A stretch of 64,000 nt of DNA. It comes from Balanoglossus misakiensis. Its lineage: Eukaryota > Animalia > Hemichordata. Both the position numbers and the translations under genes were made by a program. The first letter of the stretch is position 1. Every line of letters begins with the position of its first letter. The stretch lies in the NCBI GenBank assembly GCA_040954595.2, contig CM082586.2:9393337-9457336 (forward strand), in the 5' to 3' direction. The notes beneath the pieces were generated by a model, which was given only the letters and a program-made list of their open reading frames with translations, was not told where the DNA came from and did no database searches. Of the stretch, positions 1-49,323 are shown one piece after another.

Positions 1-92
1 TAGCAAGTTTGAGAAGTGTACCTGCAGCGGTGTCTGAGATCTAGAGCGACAAAGAAATGACACAAGAATAAAGAAAGAAGAAAGAAAGACAG

Positions 93-1588
93 ATTAAAGC
101 TGCAAGCAGCATTGTCCGGGCCCAAGCTCTATTATCTGATCTGATATTAGATATGCACATAATTAATGAGTAGAAACATAATGCTCTGTTTTATCCCATG
201 AAATATCAAGGTTATATCTATGTTTGGTGTTGATATAGTGTTAAGTAGGTCAAAGGTCTCCCAGGGGTCACCCACAATTTGGGCAGAAAATTTTGACCCA
301 TAGTGGTCCATGTCCAACAAAAACCAGACCTCTAGCCCTTTTGGTTAGCCTGGAATTAGGTATGCACATAAATAATGAGTTAAGCAGGTGTCACAGGTGA
401 CCCAAAACTTTGGCTTTTCATTATGGCCCCATACCTCCAAACGCCAAGGTTGTATCTGCTGTGGATGTCGAGATATGCAAAAGTAGGTCAAAGGTCACCC
501 GAGGTCACCCAACATTTGGGCAAAATATTTTGACCCCATACTGGTCCATGTATAACAAAAACAAAACCTCTAGGTCTATTGGTTCATCATTAATTAGGTA
601 TGCGCATATTTAATGAGGTCACCAGAGGTCAAAGGGGTCATGAAAAGTAGCAAAAATTTTTGGTCACATACAAATCCACATACATCAAAAACCAAACTTA
701 TAGCCCTATTGGTTAGCCTGGAATTAGATATGCAGAAAAATGATGCGTCAAAAGTAGGTCAAAGGTCATTGCCAAAATTACCAAAATATTTATAGCTTAT
801 TCTTGTCATATGATGATTCATATCCATAAAAAGAATTTCTGTGCTATCAATTTTTAGGCTAGAAAAGGAATTTTTACTTTTTAATCGTTTTTCACAAAAT
901 CCAATATGGCCGCCATAATCTTCGACCAATCACATTCCTCTTCGCAAACTTGATAGACATCTGTTTAATGACCACACACACCAAATCTTGTGACTCGGTT
1001 ATCGCCCGTTCTTGAGAAGAAGATTTTTGAAGTTTTACTATGGTTTTTCGAAAATCCAATATGGCCGCCATAATCTTCGACCAATCACAATGATCTTCGC
1101 AAACTTGATAGACATCAGTTAGGTGACCACATACCCCAAACCGCGTGACTTAGTTATCACCGGTTCTGGAGAAGAAGATTTTTGAAATTTAAGCCAGATT
1201 TCAGAAAAAAAATTGTAGCAAAAAAACTGCAACATTTACAGCAAAATATCCAATTACAAAAATGATGAGTAGAAGGTAGACTACCTGCACACCAAATTTG
1301 AAGTCGATCTGACTTGTAGTTTCTGAGATCTGAGATTTGCATTTTTTCAGAAAATCCAATATGGCCGCCAGGTCACGTGACTAATTAAAAATTCAAGGGT
1401 TCAATGCACGACTACTCATTGACCTTGACCACTGTAGCAAGTTTCAGAAGTGTACCTGCAGCGGTGTCTGAGATCTAGAGCGACAAAGAATTGACAGAAG
1501 AATAAAGAAAGAAAGAAAGAAAGAAGGAAAGACAGAAAAACCCCAACGAAACCAATAGGGCCCAAGCGCTGGCTTGCGCTTGGGCCCT
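93..1588 (-). mobile_element. One complete uninterrupted HINE copy (3'-end subtype A)
   Basis: 3' stem-loop and subTIR at 93-128, body, microsatellite ~1500-1535, head hairpin 1557-1588. Other complete copies include 31509-32995 and 39139-40630. Confidence 0.8.
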
Positions 1589-1719
1589 AAAAAACCCCAA
1601 CGAAACCAATAGGGCCCAAGCGCTGGTATGCGCTTGGGCCCTAAAGAAAGAAAGCAAGCAAGAAAGAAAAATTCCAACGAAACCAATAGGGCCCAAGCGC
1701 TTGCGTGCGCTTGGGCCCT
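1536..1719 (-). repeat. Stack of 3 HINE 5' heads
   Basis: (CC/TT)CCAACGAAACCAATAGGGCCCAAGCGC-loop-GCGCTTGGGCCCT x3; + strand loops TGGCTT, TGGTAT, TTGCGT. Confidence 0.9.
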
Positions 1720-6008: not shown

Positions 6009-6114
6009 AAAAATTCCAACGAAACCAATAGGGCCCAAGCGCAAGCAAGCGCTTGGGCCCTAAAAACCCCAACGAAACCAATAGGGCCCAAGCGCTGGTA
6101 TGCGCTTGGGCCCT
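6009..6114 (-). repeat. Stack of 2 HINE 5' heads
   Basis: Loops AAGCAA, TGGTAT. Confidence 0.9.
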
Positions 6115-9100
6115 AATTAAAGCTGCGAGCAGCATTGTCGGGCCCAAGCGCTGATCTTGAATTACATATGCACAGTATGAATTAGAAGAAACAGAATTTT
6201 CTATCGGATGTATTATCTCATGACATAACAAGGATGTGTGTATTTTTGCTGCTGAAATAGGGTGAAGTAGGTCAAAGGTCACCTGAGGTCACCCAACATT
6301 TGGGCAATTTTTTTGACCCATACTGGTCCATGTCCAACAAAAACCAAAACTCTAACTCTATTGGTTCGCCTGTAATTAGGTATGTGCATATTTAATGAGG
6401 TCAGCAGGTGTCACAGGTGACCCAAAAATGTGGCTTTACATTTTGGTCCAGGTCACCCAACATTTGGGCAAAAAATTTTGATCCCATACTGGTACATGTC
6501 CAACAAAAACCAAACCTCTAGCTCTATTGGTTCGCCTGTAATTAGCTATGCACATAATTAATGAGGTCAGCAGAGGTCAAAGGGGTCATGAAAAGTAGCA
6601 AAATATTTTGATCAGACACTAATCCACATGCATCAAAAACCAAAAGTCTAGCCCTATAGGTTAGCCTGGAATTAGATATGCAGAAATAATAACGCGTGAT
6701 AATTAGGTCAAAGGTCATGTGAAAAATCGCCAAAAATTTGTGACATATTATAGTCACATGACGATTGATATCCATGAAAAGAATTTAGATGCTATCAATT
6801 TTTAGACTAGGAAAAGGAATTTCAATTTTTCACTGCTTTTTACAAAATCCAATATGGCCGCCATTATCTTCGACCAATCACAATGCTCTTTGCAAACTTG
6901 ATAGACATCAGTGTTGTGACCATACTCCCCGAATCTTGCGACTCAGTTATCGCCCGTTCTGGAGAAGAAGATTTTTGCAGTTTTACTATAGTTTTTCGAA
7001 AATCCAATATGGCCGCCATAATCTTCGACCAATCACAATGCTTCTTATCAAACTTGATAGACATCAATTAGGTGACCACATACCCCAAACCGCGTCACTC
7101 GGTTATCACCGGTTCTGGAGAAGAAGATTTTTTAAATTTAAGCCAGATTTCAGAAAAAAAATTGTAGCAAAAAAACTGCAACATTTACAGCAAAATATCC
7201 AATTACAAAAATGATGGGTAGAATGTAGACTACCAGCACAGCAAATTTGAAATCGATCTGACTTGTAGTTTCTGAGATCTGACATTTGCATTTTTTCAGA
7301 AAATCCAATATGGCCGCCATGTCACGTGACTAATTAAAAATTCAAGAGTTCAATGCACGACTACCCATTGACCTTGACCACTGTAGCAAGTTTGAGAAGT
7401 GTACCTGCAGCGGTGTCTGAGATCTAGAGCGACAAAGAAATGACACAAGAATAAAGAAAGAATTAAAGCTGCAAGCAGCATTGTCGGGCCCAAGCGCTGA
7501 TCTCGAATTATATATGCACAGTATGAATGAGAAGAAATATAATTTTCTATCGGGTGTATTATCTCATGACATAACAAGGACGTATGTATTTTTGCTGCTT
7601 AAATAGGGTGAGTAGGTCAAAGGTCACCTGAGGTCACCCAACATTTGGGCAATTTTTTTTTTACCCATACTGGTCCATGTCCAACAAAAACCAAAACTCT
7701 AGCTCTATTGGTTCGCCTGTAATTAGGTATGTGCATATTTAATGAGGTTAGCAGGTGTAACAGGTGACCAAAAAATGTGCTTTACATTTTGTTCCCATCC
7801 TGCCAAATGCCATGGCTGTATCTGCTCTGGATGCTGAGATATGCGAAAGTAGGTCAAAGGTCACAAGAGGTCACCCAAAATTTGGGCAAAAATTTTGATC
7901 CCATACTGGTCCATGTCCAACAAAAATCAAACCTCTAGCTCTATTGGTTCGCCTGAAATTAGCTATGCACATAATTAATGAGGTCAGCAGAGGTCAAAGG
8001 GGTCATGAAAAGTAGCAAAATATTTTGATCACACACTAATCCACATTCATCAAAAACCAAACCTCTAGCCCTATAGGTTAGCCTGGAATTAGATATGCAG
8101 AAATAATAACGCATGATAAGTAGGTCAAAGGTCATGTGAAAAATCACCAAAAAATTGTAGCATATTTTAGTCACATGACGACTGATATCCATAAAAAGAA
8201 TTTGTATGCTATCAATTTTTAGACTAGAAAAAGGAATTTCAATTTGTCACTGCTTTTTACAAAATCCAATATGGCCGCCATAATCTTCGACCAATCACAA
8301 TGCTCTTTGCAAACTTGATAGACATCAGTGTAGTGACCATACTCCCCGAATCTTGCGACTCAGTCATCGGTCGTTCTGGAGAAGAAGATTTTTGCAGTTT
8401 TACTATGGTTTTTCGAAAATCCAATATGGCCGCCATAATCTTCAACCAATCACAATGATCTTCGCAAACTTGATAGACATCAGTTAGGTGACCACATACC
8501 CCAAACCCCGTGTCTCGGTTATCACTGGTTCTGGAGAAGAAGATTTTTGAAATTTAAGCCAGATTTGATAAAAACAACTGTAGCAAAAAAACTGCAACAT
8601 TGACAGCAAAATTTCCAATTACACAAATGATGGGTAGAAGGTAGTCTACCTGCATGCCAAATTTGAAGTCGATCTGACTTGTAGTTTCTGAGATCTGAGA
8701 TTTGATTTTTTTCAGAAAATCCAATATGGCCGCCAGGTCACGTGACTAATTAAGTATTCACAAGTCACTGCACATCTACTCATTGACCTTGACCACTGTA
8801 GCAAGTTTGAGAAGTGTACCTGCAGCGGTGTCTGAGATCTCGTTGCCCAAAGAATTGACACAAGAATAAAGAAAGAAAGAAAGAAAGATTAAAGCTGCGA
8901 GCAGCATTGTCGGGCCCAAGCGCTGATCTTGAATTATATATGCACAGTATGAATGAGAAGAAACAGAATTTTCTATCAGATGTATTATCTCATGACATAA
9001 CAAGGATGTGTGTATTTTTGCTGCTGAAATAGGGTGAAGTAGGTCAAAGGTCACCTGAGGTCACCCAACATTTGGGCAAAAAATTTTGAACCCATACTGG

Positions 9101-12100
9101 TCTATGTCCAACAAAAACCAAAACACTAGCTCTATTGGTTCGCGTGTAATTAGGTATGTGCATATTTAATGAGGTCAGCAGGTGTCACAGGTGACCCAAA
9201 AATGTGGCTTTACATTTTGGTCCCATCCTATCAAATGCCATGGCTGTATCTGCTCTGGATGCTGAGATATGCGAAAGTAGGTCAAAGGTCACCAGAGGTC
9301 ACCCAACATTTGGGCAAAAAATTTTGATCCCATACTTGTCCATGTCCAACAAAAACCAAACCTCTAGCTCTATTGGTTCACCTGTAATTAGCTATGCACA
9401 TAATTAATGAGGTCAGCAGAGGTCAAAGGGGTCATGAAAAGTAGCAAAATATTTTGATCACACACTAATCCACAAGCATCAAAAACCAAACGTCTAGCCC
9501 TATAGGTTAGCCTGGAATTAGATATGCAGAAATAATAACGCGTGATAAGTAGGTCAAAGGTCATGTGAAAAATCGCCAAAAAATTGTAACATATTTTAGT
9601 CACATGACGATTGATATCCATAAAAAGAATTTGTATGCTATCAGTTTTTGGACTAGAAAACGGAATTTCAATTTTTCACTGCTTTTTACAAAATCCAATA
9701 TGGCCGCCATAATCTTCAACCAATCACAATGCTCTTTGCAAACTTGATAGACATCAGTGTAGTGACCATACTCCCCGAATCTTGCGACTCAGTCATCGCC
9801 CGTTCTGGAGAAGAAGATTTTTGGAGTTTAACTATGGTTTTTCGAAAATCCAATATGGCCGCCATAATCTTCGACCAATCACGATGATCTTCGCAAACTT
9901 GATAGACATCACTTAGGTGACCACATACCCCAAACCCCGTGTTTCGGTTATCACTGGTTCTGGAGAAGAAGATTTTTGAAATTTAAGCCAGATTTCAGAA
10001 AAAAAATTGTAGCAAAAAAACTGCAACATTGACAGCAAAATTTCCAATTACAAAAATGATGGGCAGAAGGTAGTCTACCTGCATGCCAAATTTGAAGTCG
10101 ATCTGACTTGTAGTTTCTGAGATCTGAGATTTGAATTTTTTCAGAAAATCCAATATGGCCGCCAGGTCACGTGACTAATTAAGTATTCACAAGTCACTGC
10201 ACATCTACTCATAGACCTTGACCACTGTAGCAAGTTTGAGCAGTGTACCTGCAGTAGTTTCTGAGATTTAGTTGGCCGAAGAATTGACACAAGAATAAAG
10301 AAAGAAAGAAAGAAAGCAAGCAAGAAAGATTAAAGCTGCAAGCAGCATTGTCCGGGCCCAAGCTCTATTATCTGATCTGATATTAGATATGCACATAATT
10401 AATGAGTAGAAACATAATGCTCTGTTTTATCCCATGAAATATCAAGGTTATATCTATGTTTGGTGTTGATATAGTGTTAAGTAGGTCAAAGGTCTCCCAG
10501 GGGTCACCCACAATTTGGGCAGAAAATTTTGACCCATAGTGGTCCATGTCCAACAAAAACCAGACCTCTAGCCCTTTTGGTTAGCCTGGAATTAGGTATG
10601 CACATAAATAATGAGTTAAGCAGGTGTCACAGGTGACCCAAAACTTTGGCTTTTCATTATGGCCCCATACCTCCAAACGCCAAGGTTGTATCTGCTGTGG
10701 ATGTCGAGATATGCAAAAGTAGGTCAAAGGTCACCCGAGGTCACCCAACATTTGGGCAAAATATTTTGACCCCATACTGGTCCATGTATAACAAAAACAA
10801 AACCTCTAGGTCTATTGGTTCATCATTAATTAGGTATGCGCATATTTAATGAGGTCACCAGAGGTCAAAGGGGTCATGAAAAGTAGCAAAAATTTTTGAT
10901 CACATACAAATCCACATACATCAAAAACCAAACTTATAGCCCTATTGGTTAGCCTGGAATTAGATATGCAGAAAAATGATGCGTCAAAAGTAGGTCAAAG
11001 GTCATTGCCAAAATTACCAAAATATTTATAGCTTATTCTTGTCATATGATGATTCATATCCATAAAAAGAATTTCTGTGCTATCAATTTTTAGGCTAGAA
11101 AAGGAATTTTTACTTTTTAATCGTTTTTCACAAAATCCAATATGGCCGCCATAATCTTCGACCAATCACATTCTTCTTCGCAAACTTGATAGACATCTGT
11201 TTAATGACCACACACACCAAATCTTGTGACTCGGTTATCGCCCGTTCTTGAGAAGAAGATTTTTGAAGTTTTACTATGGTTTTTCGAAAATCCAATATGG
11301 CCGCCATAATCTTCGACCAATCACAATGACCTTCGCAAACTTGATAGACATCAGTTAGGTGACCACATACCCCAAACCGCGTGACTTAGTTATCACCGGT
11401 TCTGGAGAAGAAGATTTTTGAAATTTAAGCCAGATTTCAGAAAAAAAATTGTAGCAAAAAAACTGCAACATTTACAGCAAAATATCCAATTACAAAAATG
11501 ATGAGTAGAAGGTAGACTACCTGCACACCAAATTTGAAGTCGATCTGACTTGTAGTTTCTGAGATCTGAGATTTGCATTTTTTCAGAAAATCCAATATGG
11601 CCGCCAGGTCACGTGACTAATTAAAAATTCAAGGGTTCAATGCACGACTACTCATTGACCTTGACCACTGTAGCAAGTTTCAGAAGTGTACCTGCAGCGG
11701 TGTCTGAGATCTAGAGCGACAAAGAATTGACAGAAGAATAAAGAAAGAAAGAAAGAAAGAAGGAAAGACAGATTAAAGCTGCAAGCAGCATTGTCCGGGC
11801 CCAAGCTCTATTATCTGATCAGATTATTAGATATGCACATAATTAATGAGTAGAAACATAATGCTGTGTTTTATCCCATGAAATATCAAGGTTATATCTA
11901 TGTTTGGTGTTGATATAGTGTTAGGTAGGTCAAAGGTCACCCAGAGGTCACCCACAATTTGGGCAGAAAATTTTGATCCATAGTGGTCCATGTCCAACAA
12001 AAACCAGACCTCTAGCCCTTTTGGTTAGCCCGGAATTAGGTATGCACATAAATAATGAGTTAAGCAGGTGTCAAAGGTGACCCAAAACTTTGGCTTTTCA

Positions 12101-13206
12101 TTATGGCCCCATACCTCCAAACGCCAAGGTTGTATCTGCTGTGGATGTCGAGATATGCAAAAGTAGGTCAAAGGTCACCCGAGGTCACCCAACATTTGGG
12201 CAAAATATTTTGACCCCATACTGGTCCATGTATAACAAAAGCAAAACCTCTAGGTCTATTGGTTCATCATTAATTAGGTATGCGCATATTTAATGAGGTC
12301 ACCAGAGGTCAAAGGGGTCATGAAAAGTAGCAACATTTTTTGATCACATACAAATCCACATACATCAAAAACCAAACTTATAGCCCTATTGGTAAGCCTG
12401 GAATTAGATATGCAGAAAAATGATGCGTCAAAAGTAGGTCAAAGGTCATTGCCAAAATTACCAAAATATTTATAGCTTATTCTTGTCATATGATGATTCA
12501 TATCCATAAAAAGAATTTCCGTGCTATCAATTTTTAGGCTAGAAAAGGAATTTTTACTTTTTAATCGTTTTTCACAAAATCCAATATGGCCGCCATAATC
12601 TTCGACCAATCACATTCCCCTTCGCAAACTTGATAGACACCTGTTTAATGACCACACACACCAAATCTTGTGACTCGGTTATCGCCCGTTCTTGAGAAGA
12701 AGATTTTTGAAGTTTTACTATGGTTTTTCGAAAATCCAATATGGCCGCCATAATCTTCGACCAATCACAATGATCTTCGCAAACTTGATAGACATCTGTT
12801 AGGTGACCACATACCCCAAACCGCGTGACTCAGTTATCACCGGTTCTGGAGAAGAAGATTTTTGAAATTTAAGCCAGATTTCAGAAAAAAAATTGTAGCA
12901 AAAAAACTGCAACATTTACAGCAAAATATCCAATTACAAAAATGATGGGTAGAAGGTAGACTACCTGCACACCAAATTTGAAGTCGATCTGACTTGTAGT
13001 TTCTGAGATCTGAGATTTGCATTTTTTCAGAAAATCCAATATGGCCGCCAGGTCACGTGACTAATTAAAAATTCACAGGTTCAATGCACGACTACTCATT
13101 GACCTTGACCACTGTAGCAAGTTTCAGAAGTGTACCTGCAGCGGTGTCTGAGATCTAGAGCGACAAAGAATTGACACAAGAATAAAGAAAGAAAGAAAGA
13201 AGAAAG

Positions 13207-13421
13207 AAAAACCCCAACGAAACCAATAGGGCCCAAGCGCTGGCTTGCGCTTGGGCCCTAAAAAACCCCAACGAAACCAATAGGGCCCAAGCGCTGGCTT
13301 GCGCTTGGGCCCTAAAAAATTCCAACGAAACCAATAGGGCCCAAGCGCTTGCGTGCGCTTGGGCCCTAAAAAATTCCAACGAAACCAATAGGGCCCAAGC
13401 GCTTGCGTGCGCTTGGGCCCT
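13207..13421 (-). repeat. Stack of 4 HINE 5' heads
   Basis: Loops TGGCTT, TGGCTT, TTGCGT, TTGCGT. Confidence 0.9.
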
Positions 13422-14019
13422 AATTAAAGCTGCAAGCAGCATTGTCGGGCCCAAGCGCTGATCTTGACTTATATATGCACAGTATGAATGAGAAAAAACA
13501 GAATTTTCTATCGTATGTATTATCTGATGACATAACAAGGATGTGTGTATTTTTGCTGCTGAAATAGGGTGAAGTAGGTCAAAGGTCACCAGAGGTCACG
13601 CAACATTTGGGCAAAAAATTTTGATCCCATACTGGTCCATGTCCAACAAAAAACAAAACTCTAGCTCTATTGGTTCGCCTGTAATTAGGTATGTGCATAT
13701 TTAATGAGGTCAGCAGGTGTCACAGGTGACTCAAAAATGTGGCTTTACATTTTGGTCCCATCCTACCAAATGCCATGGCTGTATCTGCTCTGGATGCTGA
13801 GATATGCGAAAGTAGGTCAAAGGTCACCAGAGGTCACGCAACATTTGGGCAAAATTTTTTGATCTCATACTGGTCTGTGTCCAACAAAAACCAAACCTCT
13901 AGCTCTATTGGTTTGCCTGTAATTAGCTATGCACATAATTAATGAGGTCAGCAGAGGTCAAAGGGGTCATGAAAAGTAGCAAAATATTTTGATCACACAC
14001 TAATCCACATTCATCAAAA

Positions 14020-15841
14020 CAGTCAGATCGCACGGTGCTCATTTGCATATGAAAGTTCGTCAAGCCAGCGACCGTTAATTTTCAAACAGACGGCAATAGG
14101 CCAGTTTTCAAGGTGATTTTCAACTTGATTTTTACACTCCGTGGTACAATAAAATACCATGCTAGCTCGATAAATTTCGAAAGTGATTCCTATTTTGCAC
14201 TGCAGACGTAAATTTTATGAGAATCTGTCGGTAATAGTAGTAGTTTTTAGCGTGTTTTCGGTGGTATGTTGGTGACCTCGGAAGAGACGTCCACAAACGT
14301 GCCAAAAATCATTTGAAGACGACCTCGGAAGTTAACCAAGTTTTCGTGACAGATAGGTCTAATATCGGTCCCAACATCCGTGAAAAGAAATTAACTCGAA
14401 ATGCTTGTGTAACGGTCAGCTTAAAAATAATCGATGTAGTTCGACGATATGACCCGGAAGTATAGGCCCTACGTTGACCTCTCCATGTTAGGCTTGTAAA
14501 TACGGAAGTGTTGCGTTGCTCGTGAAACGACACGTTTATCGTGGGGAAAAGTTTCTAAAAGACACTTGTCCAGTAAAAGTTACTGGATAGTGTATAACAC
14601 TCTAAGGTAACATATCAGCCAAGTTTTAACTTAATTACTGGCCTGATTTCGACACAACATCGATCAATCGCACGAGTGCCGCGCCCGGGTGCTCCACACC
14701 GTTCGCCTACATTGGGCTACAAACAAATATTTGATTACCCATGCACAGAATGCCAGGTTTACCGTTCGTGAGGAGCTCAGCTGACGTATTTTGTATATAT
14801 TTTTTTCTCCGCATCGTGGGATATAAGTAGACTTTTCGAAAATGCCAAGTGTAACTTCGAAACCACTTCCCTTTATTCGCCGATGATATATGCAATAAAT
14901 ACAACATTTGTGTCTGAAGGCGAGCGATTTGTCATCATTGCATTGGGTCGATAAATAATAATAATAGTAATTTATTTATTAAACAGTGTTCAAAATACTA
15001 CTACAAAATACAGGATAAAGAGTTAAAAATACAACAAAATACAGAATAAATTGTCAACTCAGACAGCTAAAATAAAACAGTCAACTGCAACACCACCACC
15101 ACAAAAATCAGTCTTCATCAATCTGAAAGAACAATAAAATTAAAAAAAGTGAGTTTCCTTGACGGGCAAACCTTCATAAAATAATTGTTAGGGTTTAGTA
15201 AAACTCGGGATTACATATCAGCAATCAAAATTTCTTCGCACGAGAGAGGAGGGAAAACTACGCAGCTGGTACAACCCAGGATCAAGCCTGCGCCAGCGTA
15301 TATACGTACACATGCATGCTGTCTTCTCCCGCCATTTTGCAGAAGAAGTGGCGCTCACGGGTTGAAAAGTAAACAAAATGGCGCTCACAGGTTGAAAGGT
15401 AAACAAAATTGAACTGGTCATATCGTCACTATCAAAGCTTGGAAGTGAATGAAAACTCAAAGAGAGGGAGTTTGATGTCTATATTTTGATAAAAGTTTGA
15501 AATTTCGTGGTAAAATCCATGTGTAACGGTCAGCTTAAAAATAATCGAGAGGATGTCAACGCTATGTGTTTTTTCACAGTCGTCAGAAATTTCGTGATTA
15601 CAAAGAAACTACTCGACAGAAGTTGCCAAAAAATCATTCAGTAACAATCCAGTATACCTACCTTCAAGTGAATCCACGGTTTTGTCTTAAAATAATCCAC
15701 ATCGCCTGAAAACAGCTCTATAATATCGAGTAAAAAAATGGCCTATTTCGCGACCCTTCAGCGGGGCCCACTCTAACGGCTACATGGTTTGAAGTACTTT
15801 CTTCATTTGCATATGTTAATGAATGCCGTGCGATCTGACTG
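14020..15841. mobile_element. Non-autonomous TIR DNA transposon (~1.8 kb), superfamily not assigned
   Basis: Perfect 16-bp TIR CAGTCAGATCGCACGG...CCGTGCGATCTGACTG. It interrupts the HINE motif CATCAAAAACCAAAC; 4 A on the left plus 5 A on the right versus 5 A in sister units implies a 4-bp AAAA duplication. Internal direct repeat TGTGTAACGGTCAGCTTAAAAATAATCGA at ~14406 and ~15520. No convincing ORF. Confidence 0.85.
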
Positions 15842-18800: not shown

Positions 18801-20319
18801 GACCTCAGTTTGGTGACCACATACCCCAAACCGCGTGACTCGGTTATCGCCGGTTCTGGAGAAGAAGATTTTTGAAATTTTGACCAGATTTCAGAAAAAA
18901 AATTGTAGCAAAAAAACTGCAACATTGACAGCAAAATATCCAATTACAAAAATGATGGGTAGAAGGTAGACTACCTGCACACCAAGTTTGAAGTCGATCT
19001 GACTTGTAGTTTCTGAGATCTGAGATTTGCATTTTTTCAGAAAATCTAATATGGCCGCCAGGTCACGTGACTAATTAAAAATTCAAGGGTTCAATGCACA
19101 TCTACTCATTGACCTTGACCACTGTAGCAAGTTTGAGAAGTGTACTTGCAGTGGTGTCTGAGATCTAGAGCGACAAAGAATTGACACAAGAATAAAGAAA
19201 GATTAAAGCTGCAAGCAGCATTGTCCGGGCCCAAGCTCTATTATCTGATCTGATGCTGATATAGTGTTAAGTAGGTCAAAGGTCACCCGAGGTCACCCAA
19301 CATTTGGGCAAAATATTTTGACCCCATACTGGTCCATGTATAACAAAAACTAAACCTCTAGGTCTATTGGTTCATCTGTAATTAGGTATGTGCATATTTA
19401 ATGAGGTCAGCAGAGGTCAAAGGGGTCATGAAAAGTAGCAACATTTTTTGATCACATACAAATCCACATACATCAAAAACCAGAATGATAGCCTTAAAGG
19501 TTAGCCTGGAATTAGATATGCAGAAAAATGATGCGTCAAAAGTAGGTCAAAGGTCATTGCCAAAATTACCAAAATATTTATAGCTTATTCTTGGCATATG
19601 ATGATTCATATCCATAAAAAGAATTTCTGTGCTATCAATTTTTAGGCTAGAAAGGGAATTTTTACTTTTTAATCGTTTTTCACAAAATCCAATATGGCCG
19701 CCATAATCTTCGACCAATCACATTCCTCTTCGCAAACTTGATAGACATCTGTTTAATGACCACACACACCAAATATTGTGACTCAGTTATCTCCGGTTCT
19801 TGAGAAGAAGATTTTTGAAATTTTACTAGGGTTTTTCGAAAATCCAATATGGCCGCCGTAATCTTCGACCAATCACAATGATCTTCGCAAACTTGATAGA
19901 CATCAGTTAGGTGACCACATACCCCAAACCCCGTGTCTCGGTTATCACCGGGTCTGGAGAAGAAGATTTTTGAAATTTAAGCCAGATTTCAGAAAAAAAA
20001 TTGTAGCAAAAAAACTGCAACATTGACAGCATAATTTCCAATTACAAAAATGATTGACAGAAGGTAGTCTACCTGCACGCCAAATTTGAAGTCGATCTGA
20101 CATGTAGTTTCTGAGATCTGAGATTTGCATTTTTTCAGAAAATCCAATATGGCCGCCAGGTCACGTGACTAATTAAAAATTCATGGGTTCAATGCACGAC
20201 TACTCATTGACCTTGACCACTGTAGCAAGTTTGAAAACTGTACCTGCAGTGGTGTCTGAGATCTAGAGCGACAAAGAATTGACATAAGAATAAAGAAAGA
20301 AAGAAAGAAAGAAAGACTG

Positions 20320-28668: not shown

Positions 28669-28712
28669 ATGTTTAAGATGAAGTGATATGCATGCACTTT
28701 GCTAAAGAAAAG

Positions 28713-28718
28713 AATAAA
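28713..28718 (+). promoter_or_regulatory. Candidate polyadenylation signal of the transposase gene
   Basis: AATAAA 45 bp after the stop codon. Confidence 0.5.
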
Positions 28719-28807
28719 TGGTTAAAAAAGTACAAGTTTTATCAGTAATCATTTCTTGTGATGTTTGGATGTAGTTAATAGAGGTGTGAGTGTATGGATC
28801 GGAACAC

Positions 28808-28941
28808 ACATATATACCGGTATATATTTATATAAGTGTGTGCGTGTGTGCCCATGTGTCTAAATATTACATATATACATATATATAGATATGTGTCTAT
28901 ATATATATATATATATATAGATATAGATATATATATATATA
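28808..28941. repeat. (AT)n/(GT)n microsatellite within the Chapaev 3' region
   Basis: Visible ATAT/GTGT runs. Confidence 0.85.
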
Positions 28942-29255
28942 CAATCCCCTATTGTCATATTTTTTAGTATATCCAGTGAACAGATCCCACCAAATGGTTC
29001 ATGGTATGTCCAACAAAACAAGAGCAATGATTTTTTAAGGTCGTGGCCAAAAAAATTAATTAAAAATATAATTTAATTGAAAAAATCTATGAATTTAAAA
29101 GTGAAATAATATAAATTTTCAAACTACATACATTTTTTTTAAAACTTGTACTTTTAAAATGTGTATTGTATTAAATTTGTGACCACAGCACAGATCAGGA
29201 TTGCCATATGAATATCGCCCTCTATCGATGTAATTTGGTAAGGTTTGTGAGTTTG

Positions 29256-29298
29256 TATTTCTTTACTCCAACTAGAATTCAAGCTGAATACGGCTGTG
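29256..29298 (-). repeat. Right bipartite TIR of Chapaev element
   Basis: Reverse complement: CACAGCC + 11-bp spacer + GAATTCTAGTTGGAGTAAAGAAATA. Confidence 0.85.
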
Positions 29299-32942: not shown

Positions 32943-32995
32943 AAAAACCCCAACGAAACCAATAGGGCCCAAGCGCTGGTATGCGCTTGGGCCCT
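32943..32995 (-). repeat. Single HINE 5' head
   Basis: Loop TGGTAT; directly abuts the next unit's 3' end (CCCT-AATTAAAGCTGC). Confidence 0.9.
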
Positions 32996-34400
32996 AATTA
33001 AAGCTGCGAGCAGCATTGTCGGGCCCAAGCGCTGATCTTGAATTATATATGCACAGTATGAATGAGAAGAAACAGAATTTTCTATCGGATGTATTATCGC
33101 ATGACATAACAAGGATGTGTGTATTTTTGCTGCTAAAATAGGGTGAAGTAGGTCAAAGGTCACCTAAGGTCACAAGGGCAATTTTTTTTTACCCATACTG
33201 GTCCATGTCCAACAAAAAACAAAACTCTAGCTCTATTGGTTCGCCTGTAATTAGGTATGTGCATATTTAATGAGGTCAGCAGGTGTCACAGGTGACCCAA
33301 AAATGTGGCTTTACATTTTGGTCCCATCCTGCCAAATACCACGGCTGTATCTGCTCTGGATGCTGAGATATGCGAAAGTAGGTCAAAGGTCACCAGAGGT
33401 CAAGCAACATTTGGGCAAACAATTTTGATCCCATACTGGTCCATGTCCAACAAAAACCAAACCTCTGGCTCTATTGGTTCGCCTGTAATTAGCTATGCAC
33501 ATAATTAATGAGGTCAGCAGAGGTCAAAGGGGTCATGAAAAGTAGCAAAATATTTTGATCACACACTAATCCACATGCATCAAAAACCAAACGTCTAGCC
33601 CTATAGGTTAGCCTGGAATTAGATATGCAGAAATAATAACGCGTGATAAGTAGGTCAAAGGTCATGTGAAAAATCGCCAAAAATTTGTAACATATTTTAG
33701 TCACATGACGATTGATATCCATCAAAAGAATTTGTATGCTATCAATTTTTAGACTAGAAAAAGGAATTTCAATTTTTCACTGCTTTTTACGAAATCCAAT
33801 ATGGCCGCCATAATCTTCGACCAATCACAATGCTCTTTGCAAACTTGATAGACATCAGTGTAGTGACCATACTCCCCGAATCTTGCGACTCAGTTATCGC
33901 CAGTTCTGGAGTAGAAGATTTTTGCAGTTTTACTATGGTTTTTCGAAAATCCAATATGGCCGCCATAATCTTCGACCAATCACAATGCTTCTTATCAAAC
34001 TTGATAGACATCAGTTAGGTGACCACATACCCCAAACCGCGTCACTCGGTTATCACCGGTTCTGGAGAAGAAGATTTTTGAAATTTAAGCCAGATTTCAG
34101 AAAAAAAATTGTAGCAAAAAAACTGCAACATTTACAGCAAAATATCAAATTACAAAAATGATGGGTAGAAGGTAGACTACCTGCACACCAAATTTGAAGT
34201 CGATCTGACTTGTAGTTTCTGAGATCTGAGATTTGCATTTTTTCAGAAAATCCAATATGGCCGCCAGGTCACGTGACTAATTAAAAATTCAAGGGTTCAA
34301 TGCACGACTACTCATTGACCTTGACCACTGTAGCAAGTTTGAAAACTGTACCTGCAGTGGTGTCTGAGATCTAGAGCGACAAAGAAGTGAACCAAGAATA

Positions 34401-37336: not shown

Positions 37337-38081
37337 GGCTAGTTATACTTTGCGAAACAACGAAACAGCGAAACGAAACAGCGAAACGACGAAACCATTA
37401 TTAAAATAGGGGCCAGTCATCAAGACGGTGGCGTATTATTATTTTAAAAGTTTCCAAATAAGTTCCTGGTCTGCGGCCTGGTACTAGTGGTTGCGCGCCA
37501 AAAAAGAATCCCGCCCCAAAAGGTCAATGTACGAGTATATTCACAGGGCTAAGGATTAGTTGAAACAAAGCAGTAGTGTCCGTAAGCTTTCGAGGGTCAA
37601 ACACTGATGGGGGGTAAGAGTAGTAGTTATATATAGAAACACATGTAACTCACACAACACAGTATCATTGTCGAAATTTCTTTATTATCTTAATTGCAAT
37701 TCATGCCTCCCCGCCTTGTGGTATTTAAGGAAATAGTGTCAGTTGCTGCCGCATTTTGAGGTTTCGATCTTTTGTGGTTTCGTTGTGTATATGTAGCAGT
37801 TTGGCATGAATCGTTTGCGCGCACACGACGTCGACTCTACCACTACATAGTACCAGGCCGCAGACCAGGAACTGGCGACCCGCCGTTTGTTTCCAACGCC
37901 AAATTCTAATGTTGAATTTCCGAGAAAACAATTTATCTGACATGTAGTTTTCTTGGCTCGCTTACGTTTTAATTTGGAAACTTTAAAAAAAATCATACGC
38001 CACCGTCTTGATGACTGGCCCCTATTTTAATAATGGTTTCGTCGTTTCGCTGTTTCGTTGTTTCGCAAAGTATAACTAGCC
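37337..38081. mobile_element. MITE with ~90-100-bp TIRs and 8-bp TSD (MULE/Merlin-like)
   Basis: GGCTAGTTATACTTTGCGAAAC...GTTTCGCAAAGTATAACTAGCC; TSD GCTAATAT at 37329-37336 and 38082-38089; CGAAA subrepeats in the TIRs. Confidence 0.88.
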
Positions 38082-40578
38082 GCTAATATAGTGTTAAATA
38101 GGTCAAAGGTCACCCGAGGTCACCCAACATTTGGGCAAAATATTTTGACCCCATACTGGTCCATGTATAACAAAAACAAAACCTCTAGGTCTATTGGTTC
38201 ATCATTAATTAGGTATGTGCATATTTAATGAGGTCAACAGAGGTCAAAGGGGTTATGAAAAGTAGCAAAATTTTTTGATCACATACAAATCCACATACAT
38301 CAAAAACCAAACTTATAGCCCTATTGGTTAGCCTGGAATTAGATATGCAGAAAAATGATGCGTCAAAAGTAGGTCAAAGGTCATTGCCAAAATTACCAAA
38401 ATATTTATAGCTTATTCTTGGCATATGATGATTCATATCCATTAAAAAGAATTTCTGATCTATCAATTTTTAGGCTGGAAAGGGAATTTTTACTTTTTAA
38501 TCGTTTTTCACAAAATCCAATATGGCCGCCATAATCTTCGACCAATCACATTCATCTTCGCAAACTTGATAGACATCTGTTTAATGACCACAAACACCAA
38601 ATCTTGTGACTCAGTTATCGCCGGTTCTTGAGAAGAAGATTTTTGAAATTTTACTAGGGTTTTCGAAAATCCAATATGGCCGCCATAATCTTCGACCAAT
38701 CACAATGATCTTCGCAAACTTGATAGACCTCAGTTTGGTGACCACATACCCCAAACCGCGTGACTCGGTTATCGCCGGTTCTGGAGAAGAAGATTTTTGA
38801 AATTTTGACCAGATTTCAGAAAAAAAATTGTAGCAAAAAAACTGCAACATTGACAGCAAAATATCCAATTACAAAAATGATGGGCAGAAGGTACATTACC
38901 AGCACACCAAATCTGAAGTAAATCTGACTTGTAGTTTCTGAGATCTGAGATTTGCATTTTTTCAGAAAATCCAATATGGCCGCCATGTCACGTGACTAAT
39001 TAAAAATTCAAGAGTTCAATGCACGACTACCCATTGACCTTGACCACTGTAGCAAGTTTGAGAAGTGTACCTGCAGCGGTGTCTGAGATCTAGAGCGACA
39101 AAGAAATGACACAAGAATAAAGAAAGAAAGAAAGAAAGATTAAAGCTGCAAGCAGCATTGTCCGGGCCCAAGCTCTATTAACTGATCTGATTATTAGATA
39201 TGCACGTAATTAATGAGTAGAAACATAATGCTGTGTTTTATCCCATGAAATATCAAGGTTATATCTATGTTTGGTGCTGATATAGTGTTAAGTAGGTCAA
39301 AGGTCACCCAGAGGTCACCCACAATTTGGGCAGAAAATTTTGACCCATAGTGGTCCATGTCCAACAAAAAACAGACCTCTACCCCTTTTGGTTAGCCCGG
39401 AATTAGGTATGCACATAAATAATGAGTTAAGCAGGTGTCACAGATGACCAAAAACTTTGGCTTTTCATTATGGCCCCATACCTCCAAACGCCAAGGCTGT
39501 ATCTGCTGTGGATGCTGAGATTTGCGAAAGTAGGTCAAAGGTCACCAGAGGTCACCCAACATTTGGGTAAAAAATTTTGACCCCATACTTGTCCTGTCCT
39601 ACAAAAACAAAACCTCTAGGTCTATTGGTTCGCCTGTAATTAGCTATGCACATAATTAATGAGGTCAGCAGGGGTCAATGGGGTCATGAAAAGTAGCAAA
39701 ATATTTTGATCACACACTAATCCACATACATGAAAAACCAAACTTATAGCCCTATTGGTTAGCCTGGAATTAGATATGCAAAAAAATGATGCGTCAAAAG
39801 TAGGTCAAAGGTCATTGCCAAAATTACCAAAATATTTATAGCACATTGTAGTCATATGATGATTCATATCCATAAAAAGAATTTCTGTGCTATCAATTTT
39901 TAGGCTAGAAAGGGAATTTTTACTTTTTAATCGTTTTTCACAAAATCCAATATGGCCGCCATAATCTTCGACCAATCACAATGCTCTTTGCAAACTTGAT
40001 AGACATCTGTTTAATGACCACACACACCAAATCTTGTGACTCGGTTATCGCCGGTTCTTGAGAAGAAGATTTTTGAAATTTTACTAGGGTTTTTCGAAAA
40101 TCCAATATGGCCGCCAAAATCTTCGACCAATCACAATGATCTTCGCAAACTTGATAGACATCAGTTAGGTGACCACATACACCAAACCCTGTGTCTCGGT
40201 TATCACCGGTTCTGGAGAAGAAGATTTTTGAAATTTAAGCCAGATTTCAGAAAAAAAATTGTAGCAAAAAAACTGCAACATTGACAGCATAATTTCTATT
40301 TACAAAAATGATGGGCAGAATGAAATCTACCTGCACGCCAAATTTGAAGTCGATCTGACTTGTAGTTTCTGAGATCTGAGATTTGCTTTTTTTAAGAAAA
40401 TCCAAGATGGCCGCCAGGTCACGTGACTAATTAAAAATTCAAGGGTTCAATGCACGACTACTCATTGACCTTGACCACTGTACCAAGTTTGAGAAGTGTA
40501 CCTGCAGCGGTGTCTGAGATCTCGTGGGTCAAAGAATTGACACAAGAATAAAGAAAGAAAGAAAGAAAGAAAGAAAGT

Positions 40579-40684
40579 AAAATTCCAACGAAACCAATAC
40601 GGGCCCAAGCCTGGCTTGGCTTGGGCCCGTAAAAAACCCCAACGAAACCAATAGGGCCCAAGCGCTGGTATGCGCTTGGGCCCT
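40579..40684 (-). repeat. Stack of 2 HINE 5' heads
   Basis: ACGGG-stem TGGCTT head, then TGGTAT head. Confidence 0.9.
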
Positions 40685-43600
40685 AATTAAAGCTGCAAGC
40701 AGCATTGTCCGGGCCCAAGCTCTATTATCTGATCTGATTATTAGATATGCACATAATTAATGAGTAGAAACATAATGCTGTGTTTTATCCCATGAAATAT
40801 CAAGGTTATATCTATGTTTGGTGCTGATATAGTGTTAAGTAGGTCAAAGGTCACCCAGGGGTCACCCACAATTTGGGCAGAATATTTTGACCCATAGTGG
40901 TCCATGTCCAACAAAAACCAGACCTCTAGCCATTTTGGTTAACCCGGAATTAGGTATGCACATAAATAATGCGTAAAGCAGGTGTCACAGGTGACCACAA
41001 AACTTTGGCTTTTCATTATGGCCCCATACCTCCAAACGCCAAGGTTGTACCTGCTTTGGATGCCGAGATATGCAAAAGTAGGTCAAACGTCATCTGATAT
41101 CATCCAAAATTTGGGCAGAAAATTTTGACCCATAGTGGTCCATGTCCAACAAAAACCAGACCTCTAGCCCTTTTGGTTAGCCTGGAATTAGGTATGCACA
41201 TATTTAATGAGTTAAGCAGGTGTCACAGGTGACCCAAAACTTTTGCTATTCATTATGGCCCCATACCTCCAAACGCCAAGGCTGTATCTGCTGTGGATGT
41301 CGAGATATGCAAAAGTAGGTCAAAGGTCACCCGAGGTCACCCAACATTTGGGCAAAATATTTTGACCCCATACTGGTCCATGTATAACAAAAACAAAACC
41401 TCTAGGTCTATTGGTTCATCTGTAATTAGGTATGTGCATATTTAATGAGGTCAGCAGAGGTCAAAGGGGTCATGAAAAGTAGCAAAATTTTTTGATCACA
41501 TACAAATCCACATACATCAAAAACCAAACTTATAGCCCTATTGGTTAGCCTGGAATTAGATATGCAGAAAATTGATGCGTCAAAAGTAGGTCAAAGGTCA
41601 TTGCCAAAATTACCAAAATATTTATAGGTTATTCTTGTTATATGATGATTCATATCCATAAAAAGAATTTCTGTGCTATCAATTTTTAGGCTAGAAAGGG
41701 AATTTTTACTTTTTAATCGTTTTTCACAAAATCCAATATGGCCGCCATAATCTTCGACCAATCACATTCTTCTTCGCAAACTTGATAGACATCTGTTGAA
41801 TGACCACACACACCAAATCTTGTGATTCGGTTATCGCCGGTTCTCGAGAAGAAGATTTTTGAAATTTTACTAGGGTTTTTCGAAAATCCAATATGGCCGC
41901 CATAATCTTCGACCAATCACAATGATCTTCGCAAACTTGATAGACATCCGTTAGGTGACCACATACCCCAAACCCCGTGTCTCGGTTATCAACGGTTCTG
42001 GAGAAGAAGATTTTTGACATTTAAGCCGGATTTCAGAAAAAAAATTGTAGCAAAAAAACTGCAACATTGACAGCAAAATATCCAATTACAAAAATGATGG
42101 GTAGAAGGTAGACTACCTGCACACCAAATTTGAAGTCGATCTGACTTGTAGTTTCTGAGATCTGAGATTAGCATTTTTTCAGAAAATCCAATATGGCCGC
42201 CAGGTCACGTGACTAATTAAAAATTCATGGGTTCAATGCACAACTACTCATTGACCTTGACCACTGTAGCAAGTTTGAAAACTGTACCTGCATTGGTGTC
42301 TGAGATCTAGAGCGACAAAGAATTGACATAAGAATAAAGAAAGATTAAAGCTGCAAGCAGCATTGTCCGGGCCCAAGCTCTATTATCTGATCAGATTATT
42401 AGATATGCACATAATTAATGAGTAGAAACATAATGCTGTGTTTTATCCCACGAAATATCAAGGTTATATCTATGTTTGGTGTTGATATAGTGTTAAGTAG
42501 GTCAAAGGTCACCCAGAGGTCACCCACAATTTGGGCAGAAAATTTTGACCCATAGTGGTCCATGTCCAACAAAAACCAGACCTCTATCCCTTTTGGTTAG
42601 CCCGGAATTAGGTATGCACATAAATAATGAGTTAAGCAGGTGTCACAGGTGACCCAAAACTTTGGCTTTTCATTATGGCCCCATACCTCCAAACGCCAAG
42701 GCTGTATCTGCTGTGGATGTCGAGATATGCAAAAGTAGGTCAAAGGTCATCCGAGGTCACCCAACATTTGGGCAAAAAAATTTGACCCAATACTGGTTCA
42801 TGTCCAACAAAAACCAAACCTCTAGGTCTATTGGTTCATCTGTAATTAGGTATGCGCATATTTAATGAGGTCAGCAGAGGTCAAAGGGGTCATGAAAAGT
42901 AGCGAAATTTTTTGATTGCATACAAATCCACATACATCAAAAACCAAACTTATAGCCCTATTAGTTAGCCTGGAATTAGATATGCAGAAAAATGATGTGT
43001 CAAAAGTAGGTCAAAGGTCATTGCCAAAATTACCAAAATATTTATAGCTTATTCTTGGCATATGATGATTCATATCCATAAAAAGAATTTCTGTGCTATC
43101 AATTTTTAGGCTAGAAAGGGAATTTTTACTTTTTAATCGTTTTTCACAAAATCCAATATGGCCGCCATAATCTTCGACCAATCACATTCACCTTCGCAAA
43201 CTTGATAGACATCTGTTTAATGACCACACACACCAAATCTTGTGACTCAGTTATCGCCGGTTCTTGAGAAGAAGATTTTTGAAATTTTACTAGGGTTTTT
43301 CGAAAATCCAATATGGCCGCCATAATCTTCGACCAATCACAATGATCTTCGCAAACTTGATAGACCTCAGTTAGGTGACCACATACCCCAAACCACGTGA
43401 CTCGGTTATTGCCGGTTCTGGAGAAGAAGATTTTTGAAATTTTGACCAGATTTCAGAAAAAAAATTGTAGCAAAAAAACTGCAACATTGACAGCAAAATA
43501 TCCAATTACAAAAATGATGGGCAGAAGGTACACTACCAGCACACCAAATCTGAAGTAAATCTGACTTGTAGTTTCTGAGATCTGAGATTTGCATTTTTTC

Positions 43601-45468: not shown

Positions 45469-45574
45469 AAAAACCCCAACGAAACCAATAGGGCCCAAGC
45501 GCTGGTATGCGCTTGGGCCCTAAAAACCCCAACGAAACCAATAGGGCCCAAGCGCTGGTATGCGCTTGGGCCCT
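45469..45574 (-). repeat. Stack of 2 HINE 5' heads
   Basis: Loops TGGTAT x2. Confidence 0.9.
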
Positions 45575-48500
45575 AATTAAAGCTGCGAGCAGCATTGTCG
45601 GGCCCAAGCGCTGATCTCGAATTATATATGCACAGTATGAGGTCAAAGGGGTCATGAAAAGTAGCAAAATATTTTGATCACACACTAATCCACATGCATC
45701 AAAAACCAAACGTCTAGCCCTATAGGTTAGCCTTGAATTAGATATGCAGAAATAATAATGCGTGATAAGTAGGTCAAAGGTCATGTGAAAAATCGCCAAA
45801 AATTTGTAACATATTTTAGTCATATGACGAATGATATCCATGAAAAGAATTTGTATGCTATCAATTTTTAGACTAGGAAAAGGAATTTCAATTTTTCACT
45901 GCTTTTTACGAAATCCAATATGGCGGCCATAATCTTCGACCAATCACAATGCTCGTTGCAAACTTGATAGACATCAGTGTTGTGACCATACTCCCCGAAT
46001 CTTGCGACTCAGTTATCGCCAGTTCTGGAGTAGAAGATTTTTGCAGTTTTACTATGGTTTTCCGAAAATCCAATATGGCCGCCATAATCTTCGACCAATC
46101 ACAATGCTTCTTATCAAACTTGATAGACATCAGTTAGGTGACCACATACCCCAAACCGCGTCACTCGGTTATCACCGGTTCTGGAGAAGAAGATTTTTGA
46201 AATTTAAGCCAGATTTCAGAAAAAAAATTGTAGCAAAAAAACTGCAACATTTACAGCAAAATATCCAATTACAAAAATGATGGGTAGAAGGTAGACTACC
46301 TGCACACCAAATTTGAAGTCGATCTGACTTGTAGTTTCTGAGATCTGAGATTTGCATTTTTTCAGAAAATCCAATATGGCCGCCAGGTCACGTGACTAAT
46401 TAAAAATTCAAGGGTTCAATGCACGACTACTCATTGACCTTGACCACTGTAGCAAGTTTGAAAACTGTACCTGCAGTGGTGTCTGAGATCTAGAGCGACA
46501 AAGAAGTGAACCAAGAATAAAGAAAGAAAGAAAGAAAGAAAGAAAGAATTAAAGCTGCAAGCAGCATTGTCGGGCCCAAGCGCTGATCCGGAATTATATA
46601 TGCACAGTATGAATGAGAAGAAACAGAATGCTCTATCAGGTTTTCTATCTCATGACATAACAAGGACGTATGTATTTTTGCTGCAGAAATAGAGTAAAGT
46701 AGGTAAAAGGTCACCTGAGGTCATCTAAATTTTGGGAAATTTTTTTTGACCCATACTGGTCCATGTCCAACAAAAACCAAAACTCTAGCTCTATTGGTTC
46801 GCCTGTAATTAGGTATGTGCATATTTAATGAGGTCAGCAGGTGTCACAGGTGACCCAAAAATGTGGCTTTACATTTTGGTCCCATCCTGCCAAATGCCAT
46901 GGCTGTATCTGCTCTGGATGCTGAGATATGCGAAAGTAGGTCAAAGGTCACCAGAGGTCTTCCAAAATTTGGGCAAAAAATATTGATCCCATACATGTCC
47001 ATGTCCAACAAAAACCAAACCTCTAGCTCTATTGGTTCGCCTGTAATTAGCTATGCACATAATTAATGAGGTCAGCAGAGGTCAAAGGGGTCATGAAAAG
47101 TAGCAAAATATTTTGATCACACACTAATCCACATGCATCAAAAACCAAACGTCTAGCCCTATAGGTTAGCCTTGAATTAGATATGCAGAAATAATAATGC
47201 GTGATAAGTAGGTCAAAGGTCATGTGAAAAATCGCCAAAAATTTGTAACATATTTTAGTCATATAACGATTGATATCCATGAAAAGAATTTGTATGCTAT
47301 CAATTTTTAGACTAGGAAAAGGAATTTCAATTTTTCACTGCTTTTTACGAAATCCAATATGGCCGCCATAATCTTCGACCAATCACAATGCTTCTTATCA
47401 AACTTGATAGACATCAGTTAGGTGACCACATACCCCAAACCGCGTCACTCGGTTATCACCGGTTCTGGAGAAGAAGATTTTTGAAATTTAAGCCAGATTT
47501 CAGAAAAAAAATTGTAGCAAAAAAACTGCAACATTTACAGCAAAATATCCAATTACAAAAATGATGGGTAGAAGGTAGACTACCTGCACACCAAATTTGA
47601 AGTCGATCTGACTTGTAGTTTCTGAGATCTGAGATTTGCATTTTTTCAGAAAATCCAATATGGCCGCCAGGTCACGTGACTAATTAAAAATTCAAGGGTT
47701 CAATGCACGACTACTCATTGACCTTGACCACTGTAGCAAGTTTGAAAACTGTACCTGCAGTGGTGTCTGAGATCTAGAGCGACAAAGAAGTGAACCAAGA
47801 ATAAAGAAAGAAAGAAAGAAAGAAAGAAAGAATTAAAGCTGCAAGCAGCATTGTCGGGCCCAAGCGCTGATCCGGAATTATATATGCACAGTATGAATGA
47901 GAAGAAACAGAATGCTCTATCAGGTTTTCTATCTCATGACATAACAAGGACGTATGTATTTTTGCTGCAGAAATAGAGTAAAGTAGGTAAAAGGTCACCT
48001 GAGGTCATCTAAATTTTGGGAAATTTTTTTTGACCCATACTGGTCCATGTCCAACAAAAACCAAAACTCTAGCTCTATTGGTTCGCCTGTAGTTAGGTAT
48101 GTGCATATTTAATGAGGTCAGCAGGTGTCACAGGTGACCCAAAAATGTGGCTTTACATTTTGGTCCCATCCTGCCAAATGCCATGGCTGTATCTGCTCTG
48201 GATGCTGAGATATGCGAAAGTAGGTCAAAGGTCACCAGAGGTCTTCCAAAATTTGGGCAAAAAATATTGATCCCATACATGTCCATGTCCAACAAAAACC
48301 AAACCTCTAGCTCTATTGGTTCGCCTGTAATTAGCTATGCACATAATTAATGAGGTCAGCAGAGGTCAAAGGGGTCATGAAAAGTAGCAAAATATTTTGA
48401 TCACACACTAATCCACATGCATCAAAAACCAAACGTCTAGCCCTATAGGTTAGCCTTGAATTAGATATGCAGAAATAATAATGCGTGATAAGTAGGTCAA

Positions 48501-49102
48501 AGGTCATGTGAAAAATCGCCAAAAATTTGTAACATATTTTAGTCATATAACGATTGATATCCATGAAAAGAATTTGTATGCTATCAATTTTTAGACTAGG
48601 AAAAGGAATTTCAATTTTTCACTGCTTTTTACGAAATCCAATATGGCCGCCATAATCTTCGACCAATCACAATGCTTCTTATCAAACTTGATAGACATCA
48701 GTTAGGTGACCACATACCCCAAACCGCGTCACTCGGTTATCACCGGTTCTGGAGAAGAAGATTTTTGAAATTTAAGCCAGATTTCAGAAAAAAAATTGTA
48801 GCAAAAAAACTGCAACATTTACAGCAAAATATCCAATTACAAAAATGATGGGTAGAAGGTAGACTACCTGCACACCAAATTTGAAGTCGATCTGACTTGT
48901 AGTTTCTGAGATCTGAGATTTGCATTTTTTCAGAAAATCCAATATGGCCGCCAGGTCACGTGACTAATTAAAAATTCAAGGGTTCAATGCACGACTACTC
49001 ATTGACCTTGACCACTGTAGCAAGTTTGAAAACTGTACCTGCAGTGGTGTCTGAGATCTAGAGCGACAAAGAAGTGAACCAAGAATAAAGAAAGAAAGAA
49101 AG

Positions 49103-49323
49103 AAAAACCCCAACGAAACCAATAGGGCCCAAGCGCTGCTATGCGCTTGGGCCCTAAAAACCCCAACGAAACCAATAGGGCCCAAGCGCTGCTATGCGCT
49201 TGGGCCCTAAAAAACCCCAACGAAACCAATAGGGCCCAAGCGCTGCTATGCGCTTGGGCCCTAAAGAAAGAAAAACCCCAACGAAACCAATAGGGCCCAA
49301 GCGCTGGCTTGCGCTTGGGCCCT
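49103..49323 (-). repeat. Terminal stack of 4 HINE 5' heads (outer boundary of the array)
   Basis: Loops TGCTAT x3, TGGCTT; unrelated LINE sequence follows at 49324. Confidence 0.9.

Follow-up and report, generated by a model that had tools for sequence, protein, structure and literature searches.

An apparently nested 49-kb array of HINE-like Helentron units in Balanoglossus misakiensis, with insertion junctions clustered beside resident 5' hairpins

We analyzed a window of 64,000 nucleotides from the hemichordate Balanoglossus misakiensis (GenBank assembly GCA_040954595.2, contig CM082586.2, positions 9,393,337 to 9,457,336 of the forward strand), in which positions 1–49324 are occupied by an array of 0.9–1.7-kb units on the minus strand that, judged by their sequence, resemble the non-coding Helentron-type elements called HINEs. 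A preceding sequence-only reading had described this locus as a >49-kb stack of Helentrons built by nested insertion. The extent was confirmed, but about 10.5 kb of the interior consist of three unrelated transposons, and the left end of the array lies beyond the window. Self-comparison of the window shows that one repeat family spans 1–49.3 kb save three gaps, with nearly no inverted matches. The census of the array in the window comprises 28 bodies, 27 3' ends, and 25 5' heads in a single orientation, with no inverted unit among the 28, and the pairwise divergence of the bodies ranges from 0.1 to 15%. Units, orientation, and head stacks are located where the sequence-only reading had placed them; as it had also noted, most bodies (20 of 28) end in an A/G microsatellite linker and directly abut the 3' end of another unit, and the other 8 have their own head attached. 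The remaining 7 3' ends come after a head, six of them directly and one after three linker bases. All array features given below are on the minus strand.

Each unit starts with a 13–14-bp hairpin, behind which come ~22 nt with a T-run at their end and then a (CTTT)n linker. The body that follows is 0.9–1.6 kb long, has internal 155-bp and 238-bp repeats, and is bounded on the 3' side by a subterminal repeat that copies the hairpin arm, by a 5-bp palindrome, and by terminal T's. The intact unit at 93–1589 exemplifies this order from the head hairpin, T-run, and (CTTT)n through the body with both repeats to the 3' subterminal repeat and short palindrome. Specifically, the subterminal inverted repeat is 10–12 bp long with the core GGGCCCAAGC; its 5' copy lies 2 nt inside the 5' terminus, and its 3' copy stops ~24 nt short of the 3' terminus. 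The 5' hairpin folds into a 13–14-bp stem at -18.9 kcal/mol, with z scores of -8.5 and -6.6, while the 5-bp palindrome is found by sequence in 27/27 3' ends and folds weakly (centroid with a 4-bp stem, z +1.4). The longest stop-to-stop frames over the units, read from the frames alone, reach at most 240 aa and run through the repeats.

The HINE-like assignment is based on the inverted subterminal repeats, the 5' hairpin, the T-rich target without duplication, and the (AAAG)n linker together with central repeats. The non-autonomous Helentrons known as HINE/DINE-1 (Thomas, Vadnagara & Pritham 2014, PMC4067079), including the oyster Cg_HINE (PMC7492417), have in common with the array the subterminal inverted repeats, a hairpin overlapping the 5' repeat with a microsatellite behind it, central tandem repeats, a T-rich target without duplication, and an uncertain number of terminal T's; the short 3' palindrome of HINEs has a counterpart in the array by sequence, though it folds weakly there. 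In mite HINEs the 3' subterminal repeat lies 38–60 bp from the end, so that the ~24 nt of the array is slightly closer (PMC4067079). These elements are described as dispersed (PMC4067079, PMC7492417), whereas nesting at a fixed site and ordered head stacks are features of the present array.

The 25 heads fall into eight groups of 3, 2, 4, 7, 1, 2, 2, and 4. The first stack (1535–1720) contains three heads, the third of which closes a body outside the window. The second (6009–6115; two heads) closes bodies 4584 and 3152, and the third (13207–13422; four heads) closes bodies 11773, 10330, 8889, and 7463. The largest stack (20320–20733) is comprised of seven heads of six types, five of which fit bodies 19203, 18105, 16673, 13424, and 6117, the sixth being a misfit for body 1722. 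A lone head at 32943–32996 belongs to unit 31511 and has a 14-bp stem (-18.9 kcal/mol, z -8.5). Two further stacks have two heads each: that at 40578–40685 contains the rare ACGGG head on body 39140 and then the head of body 37277, and that at 45469–45575 closes bodies 43778 and 42345. The terminal stack (49103–49324) holds four heads versus ~9 owed, and its last head abuts a long interspersed nuclear element (LINE). The best-resolved nest occupies 6116–20626, where host 6117 holds 7463[8889[10330[11773]]] and 13424[16673[18105[19203]]], each bracket enclosing a guest; it is five levels deep, with 9/9 units closed in register and error-free.

Pairings of bodies and heads that had been predicted from diagnostic variants hold in most cases. 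Body 16673 takes head 20474, which is of the rare, short-armed ACGGG type that 39140 carries; body 18105 takes head 20420, whose type is the one found on 43778; bodies 10330 and 11773 take TGGCTT heads, as in unit 94; and bodies 7463, 8889, and 13424 take TTGCGT heads. The proposed match between three bodies with the GAAGTGAACC end and three TGCTAT heads is weak, because five bodies share this end (30076, 32998, 45577, 46549, and 47833) and 46549 is a tandem duplicate of 47833.

The claim of last-in-first-out order was evaluated by a bracket parse, in which a 3' end opens and a head closes. This parse returns 8 intact units, 15 re-joinable pairs, 5 bodies left open, and 2 heads belonging to bodies beyond the left edge of the window; these detached heads, 1689 and 20702, were excluded from the pair counts. 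Body 0, with 63 bases in the window, enters the tests on 15 pairs and is absent from the alignment, so that the body-head correlation uses 14 pairs. The head of the nearest of the 8 intact units, with nearness measured by the last 60, 150, or 300 nt, served as the predicted head type. The prediction is exact in 10/15 pairs by the last 60 or 150 nt and in 8/15 by the last 300 nt, as compared with means of 2.3–2.9 in 100,000 global shuffles (p 1e-5 to 9e-5; 2.9 and p 1e-5 for the 10/15) and 5.3–6.3 over all 51,840 within-stack orders (p 0.003–0.011; 6.3 and p 0.003 for the 10/15). The reverse, first-in-first-out order gives only 4 exact head types. Additionally, 13/15 pairs re-join in the linker register of intact linkers with two A/T added per insertion, against 8.8 in shuffles (p 0.02–0.025). 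The distances among bodies and among heads are congruent as well when set against shuffled pairings, with a rank correlation of 0.45–0.57 for the last 150–600 columns (p 0.003–0.005); over the first 1000 columns it falls to 0.10 (p 0.06), as expected if the bodies are mosaic. Together, these tests support nested insertion with a last-in-first-out order. The array retains an order of insertion, as proposed, but not a clean record of it, given 5 unclosed bodies, 2/15 failed pairs, one duplicate, and mosaics.

The head zone contains all 27 junctions, against none in 36,530 bases of body. The preference for the side of the family's own 5' hairpin, put forward by the sequence-only reading, is therefore strong at this locus. 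The head zone holds 5–34% of candidate T-runs, depending on the definition, and the significance drawn from this share is indicative only, since it assumes uniform T-run use and 25 independent events. Bodies tolerate insertions, since the three unrelated transposons (3/3) all landed in body interiors. Moreover, the 8 intact units contain unused T5+C sites, 15 on the same strand and 21 on the opposite strand in the bodies and 7 in the linkers. Among the 17 detached heads, 13 are cut 21–22 nt from the hairpin arm, and the other 4 are cut at 29–48 nt, inside the microsatellite. Direct head-to-3'-end junctions share one register in 6/6 cases, and the linker sites divide 10:10 over two; the single register of the direct neighbors hints at cutting exactly at the end of the resident.

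The insertions left no target duplication, the 13/15 linkers noted above being re-joined with just two added T's. One T at each end suits every site, while two T's at the 5' end misfit the LINE site. At the outermost head, the empty site known from intact LINE copies in public contigs is a plain four-A tract, through which these copies continue without a Helentron; ordinary T-runs are thus usable where no hairpin is near. The public contigs represent one sample, possibly the assembly's own source. They contain stacked as well as dispersed copies of the family, with head-to-head joints and with heads that give way to unrelated A-rich sequence (6 and 5 contigs among those listed), at a very high summed depth, which is not a copy number; no contig among them bridges a whole head stack.

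For 24/27 junctions, the exact match to any other junction, counted over both flanks, does not exceed 48 bases. Units 94 and 10330 show only 3 differences, but their hosts are not the same, their identity ends at the unit boundary, and just one of the two is interrupted while the other is intact. Both observations speak for separate insertions and not for block copies. Rolling-circle dimers, or the integration of circles by crossover, were considered as a source of direct neighbors and are ruled out by the 2.3–13.6% divergence of such neighbors (5/5 pairs).

Recombination has probably scrambled the array in part at a later time and appears to have erased part of the order record. The sole near-identical adjacent units are 46549 and 47833, of which the former (46548–47831) is a headless tandem duplicate with 1 difference in 1248 bases and a junction identical over 483+259 bases. 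Body 46549 has the linker length of 45577, which is what unequal crossover would give, and the duplicate likely arose in this way. The junction at 31511 has 308 exact bases in common with the 46549/47833 junctions, which may reflect a conversion tract or coincidence. The bodies 18105, 19203, and 37277 share an internal deletion, and 40687 and 43778 share an extra 238-bp repeat, while the head-proximal ends differ. Because these shared traits combine with different head-proximal ends, the subfamilies are mosaics.

Our preferred reading, to which we assign a probability of about 0.6, is nested self-insertion at T-runs beside resident 5' hairpins, with the hairpin probably recognized by the transposase of a partner element, followed by unequal exchange. 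Specifically, every new copy would enter a T-run beside a resident 5' hairpin in the one shared orientation and leave no target duplication, this site probably being picked because the partner transposase recognizes the hairpin. A landing 21–48 nt downstream of the resident hairpin would split the resident into head and body, and repeated splitting would generate runs of headless bodies followed by last-in-first-out head stacks; a landing at the boundary of the resident would instead yield exact end-to-head neighbors. Later unequal exchange among the repeats may account for the duplication of at least one body, the loss of some heads, and the mosaics. An analogy, and only that, is offered by the bacterial IS200/IS605 peel-and-paste elements, whose HUH transposase, a Y1 enzyme, recognizes hairpins in subterminal position and makes its single-strand cuts at a fixed distance, the short target being picked by base pairing.

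Several points weigh against this reading. The locus is a single one, chosen because it is a stack, and the register grammar was composed after the sequences had been inspected. The register test alone fails to discriminate the order inside stacks (p 0.41), and by the nearest-neighbor statistic 72/720 orders of the largest stack are equally good, because of body 1722. Two of the 15 pairs fail in register and 5/15 are unlike the nearest intact head type. Body 1722 has an assigned head that is wrong in both type and register, and 45577 and 49232 re-join with a register error of one A; of the five misses in type, three belong to the TTGCGT subfamily, which agree with one another and whose sole intact relative in the window has a variant loop. 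Bodies 20738, 30076, 32998, 34433, and 35859 are never closed. By eye, head 49232 would suit body 32998 better, and the last head, abutting the LINE, would suit a founder with a linker remnant at 20734–20736; under this repair, approximately four heads would have been lost from the terminal stack. The expectation that inner copies are younger found no support in private substitutions, with more in the host for 8 and fewer for 14 of 24 pairs (p 0.29, rho 0.00), this age proxy being confounded by sister copies and mosaics. No autonomous RepHel partner was found, and two metagenome scans for the exact head motif and the stacked-head pattern gave 0 matches. Finally, the data do not separate recognition of the hairpin from a preference for the context of T-run and (CTTT)n.

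This last point leads to an explanation that keeps the nested history and has the site set by local sequence, namely a T-run followed by a (CTTT)n tract, with no role for the hairpin. HINEs do favor T-rich targets without duplication (PMC4067079, PMC7492417), a lepidopteran Helitron-like family is reported to disrupt (GAAA)n microsatellites, and the 4/17 heads cut inside the microsatellite are in line with such a preference. However, 13/17 cuts fall at the single T-run nearest to the hairpin and are not spread over the 5–8 TTT units, the 6/6 direct neighbors keep to one register, and the LINE target has no (CTTT)n, so that we consider a purely local choice of site unlikely, though worth serious attention. 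The same nested history could also arise if an incoming single-stranded circle paired by homology with the resident, which would set the orientation and bring the enzyme, or if copies hopped locally. The absence of any inverted unit among the 28 would suit this, as would the finding that guests are nearer to their hosts than shuffled partners (0.073 vs 0.092 over the whole body, 23 pairs, p 0.005; duplicate 46549 left aside). Yet this closeness loses significance when the 150–300 columns next to the head are taken (p 0.07–0.10), 7/23 host-guest pairs cross the two main clades, which are ~12–14% apart, and shared periods of activity or conversion between neighbors would explain the similarity equally well; guidance by homology or local hopping is accordingly rather improbable in our judgment. 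What the preferred reading and these two explanations have in common, a history of nested self-insertion with later unequal exchange, we regard as very likely.

The remaining alternatives dispense with nesting. A satellite might have grown from rolling-circle concatemers and unequal crossover, with bodies and heads amplified separately and the bracket match incidental. Recombination has clearly acted, as seen from the tandem duplicate 46549, the 308-nt tract shared with 31511, the mosaics, and the unbalanced counts, and a review notes plant concatemers that carry several 5' ends (PMC12628747). Such an origin is nevertheless largely refuted by the divergence of direct neighbors, the mixed head types per stack, the 24/27 unique junctions, and the pairing at p 1e-5, and we hold it to be very improbable. 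As to an assembly artefact, misassembly might account for the 46549/47833 duplicate and for the shortness of the terminal stack, and the outside data are contigs and not array-spanning reads; but units that differ by up to 15%, unique junctions, and head-to-head joints that recur in the public contigs, with the restriction on their source given above, leave this notion next to no credibility.

The sequence-only reading named no earlier description of the mechanism at this scale, but self-insertion as such is not new. In Fusarium oxysporum, several short 5' termini of FoHeli were attributed to self-insertion (PMC5148889), with up to five in FoHeli1 (PMC13342296), and in maize, Helitrons are reported to land inside or close to other Helitrons (PMC3288121, citing Yang & Bennetzen). 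The array would extend this habit already published for fungi and maize. It has in common with FoHeli, which is of Helitron2 type, the multiple 5' termini and the self-insertion near the 5' end; FoHeli shows many 5' ends per one 3' end, read as composites that move together (PMC5148889, PMC13342296), whereas in the array 3' ends and heads stand at 27:25, bodies of different subfamilies are matched in sequence to their own heads, and the insertion site is located to the base. Nesting within one superfamily and multiple termini are likewise seen in maize, where the elements are canonical and AT-inserting, and neither a single target position nor a bracket order is reported in the accessible text (PMC3288121). 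In the double-insertion model of satellite origin (McGurk & Barbash 2018, PMC5932611), a site preference similarly generates tandem elements that unequal exchange can expand; double insertion reuses the host target or the target duplication, whereas the copies of the array each bring a fresh internal target and hence nest. No description of the fixed site 21–22 nt from the hairpin, of an order test at base level, or of type-matched ordered head stacks was found in the openly accessible full text searched.

How Helentrons choose their targets is biochemically open (PMC4067079). With ~25 independent insertions mapped to the base at one natural locus, the array offers a concrete test of a fixed distance from the hairpin, yields a relative chronology of subfamilies, and would add nesting to concatemers and double insertion as a third route from rolling-circle element to satellite-like array. 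In the output of annotation pipelines, a locus of this kind will appear as truncated fragments accompanied by a 54-bp satellite. As a tentative generalization, about which we are somewhat more doubtful than confident, the 5' hairpin of a copy already in place might serve Helentron transposases as a landing pad, with cleavage two helical turns (21–22 nt) downstream or exactly at the end of the resident; each insertion would renew the target, and self-nesting stacks would thereby form in animal HINE families and work as insertion sinks, satellite seeds, and a record of subfamily order. The limits of these conclusions are that they concern one locus, that self-insertion is already known, and that part of the record has been lost to recombination.

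The three unrelated transposons differ in kind. A non-coding element at 14020–15841, in the interior of body 13424, has terminal inverted repeats (TIRs) of ~16 bp and an apparent 4-bp duplication of A's. A second non-coding TIR element, of 745 bp (37337–38081), lies in the interior of body 37277 and has long TIRs and an apparent 8-bp duplication. The third is a 7.9-kb DNA transposon on the plus strand (21385–29298) in the interior of body 20738, with CAC...GTG ends, a 4-bp duplication (CGTG), a 25-bp perfect subterminal inverted match, and a 131-bp perfect internal inverted repeat. Its multi-exon gene contains a RAG1 N-terminal-like domain (PF12560, E 1e-10), a RING domain (E 4e-8), and DUF1280, and eight coding segments match a 933-aa protein of Ptychodera flava with 52–69% identity. 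We take the ends and the 4-bp duplication to fit Chapaev. The RAG1 N-terminal-like (Chapa) domain followed by RING is the layout of two Chapaev subgroups, and the target duplication of Transib is 5 bp, unlike the 4 bp found here (PMC4411706). By its sequence features, the element is Chapaev-like; it looks intact and may be young.

On the right, the array cuts a multicopy LINE on the minus strand (49325–50952), of which the 5' part, with an AP endonuclease domain and the frames following it, is present; its 3' part is predicted at the left end of the array, outside the window. Farther on, stop-broken fragments of a ROC-COR-type gene were observed at 51579–52864 on the plus strand (COR-A, E 5.5e-4, below the Pfam cut-off), and the frames of a probable transposase-like gene occupy 62249–63601 on the minus strand, with a weak match to DUF7869 (E 0.007).

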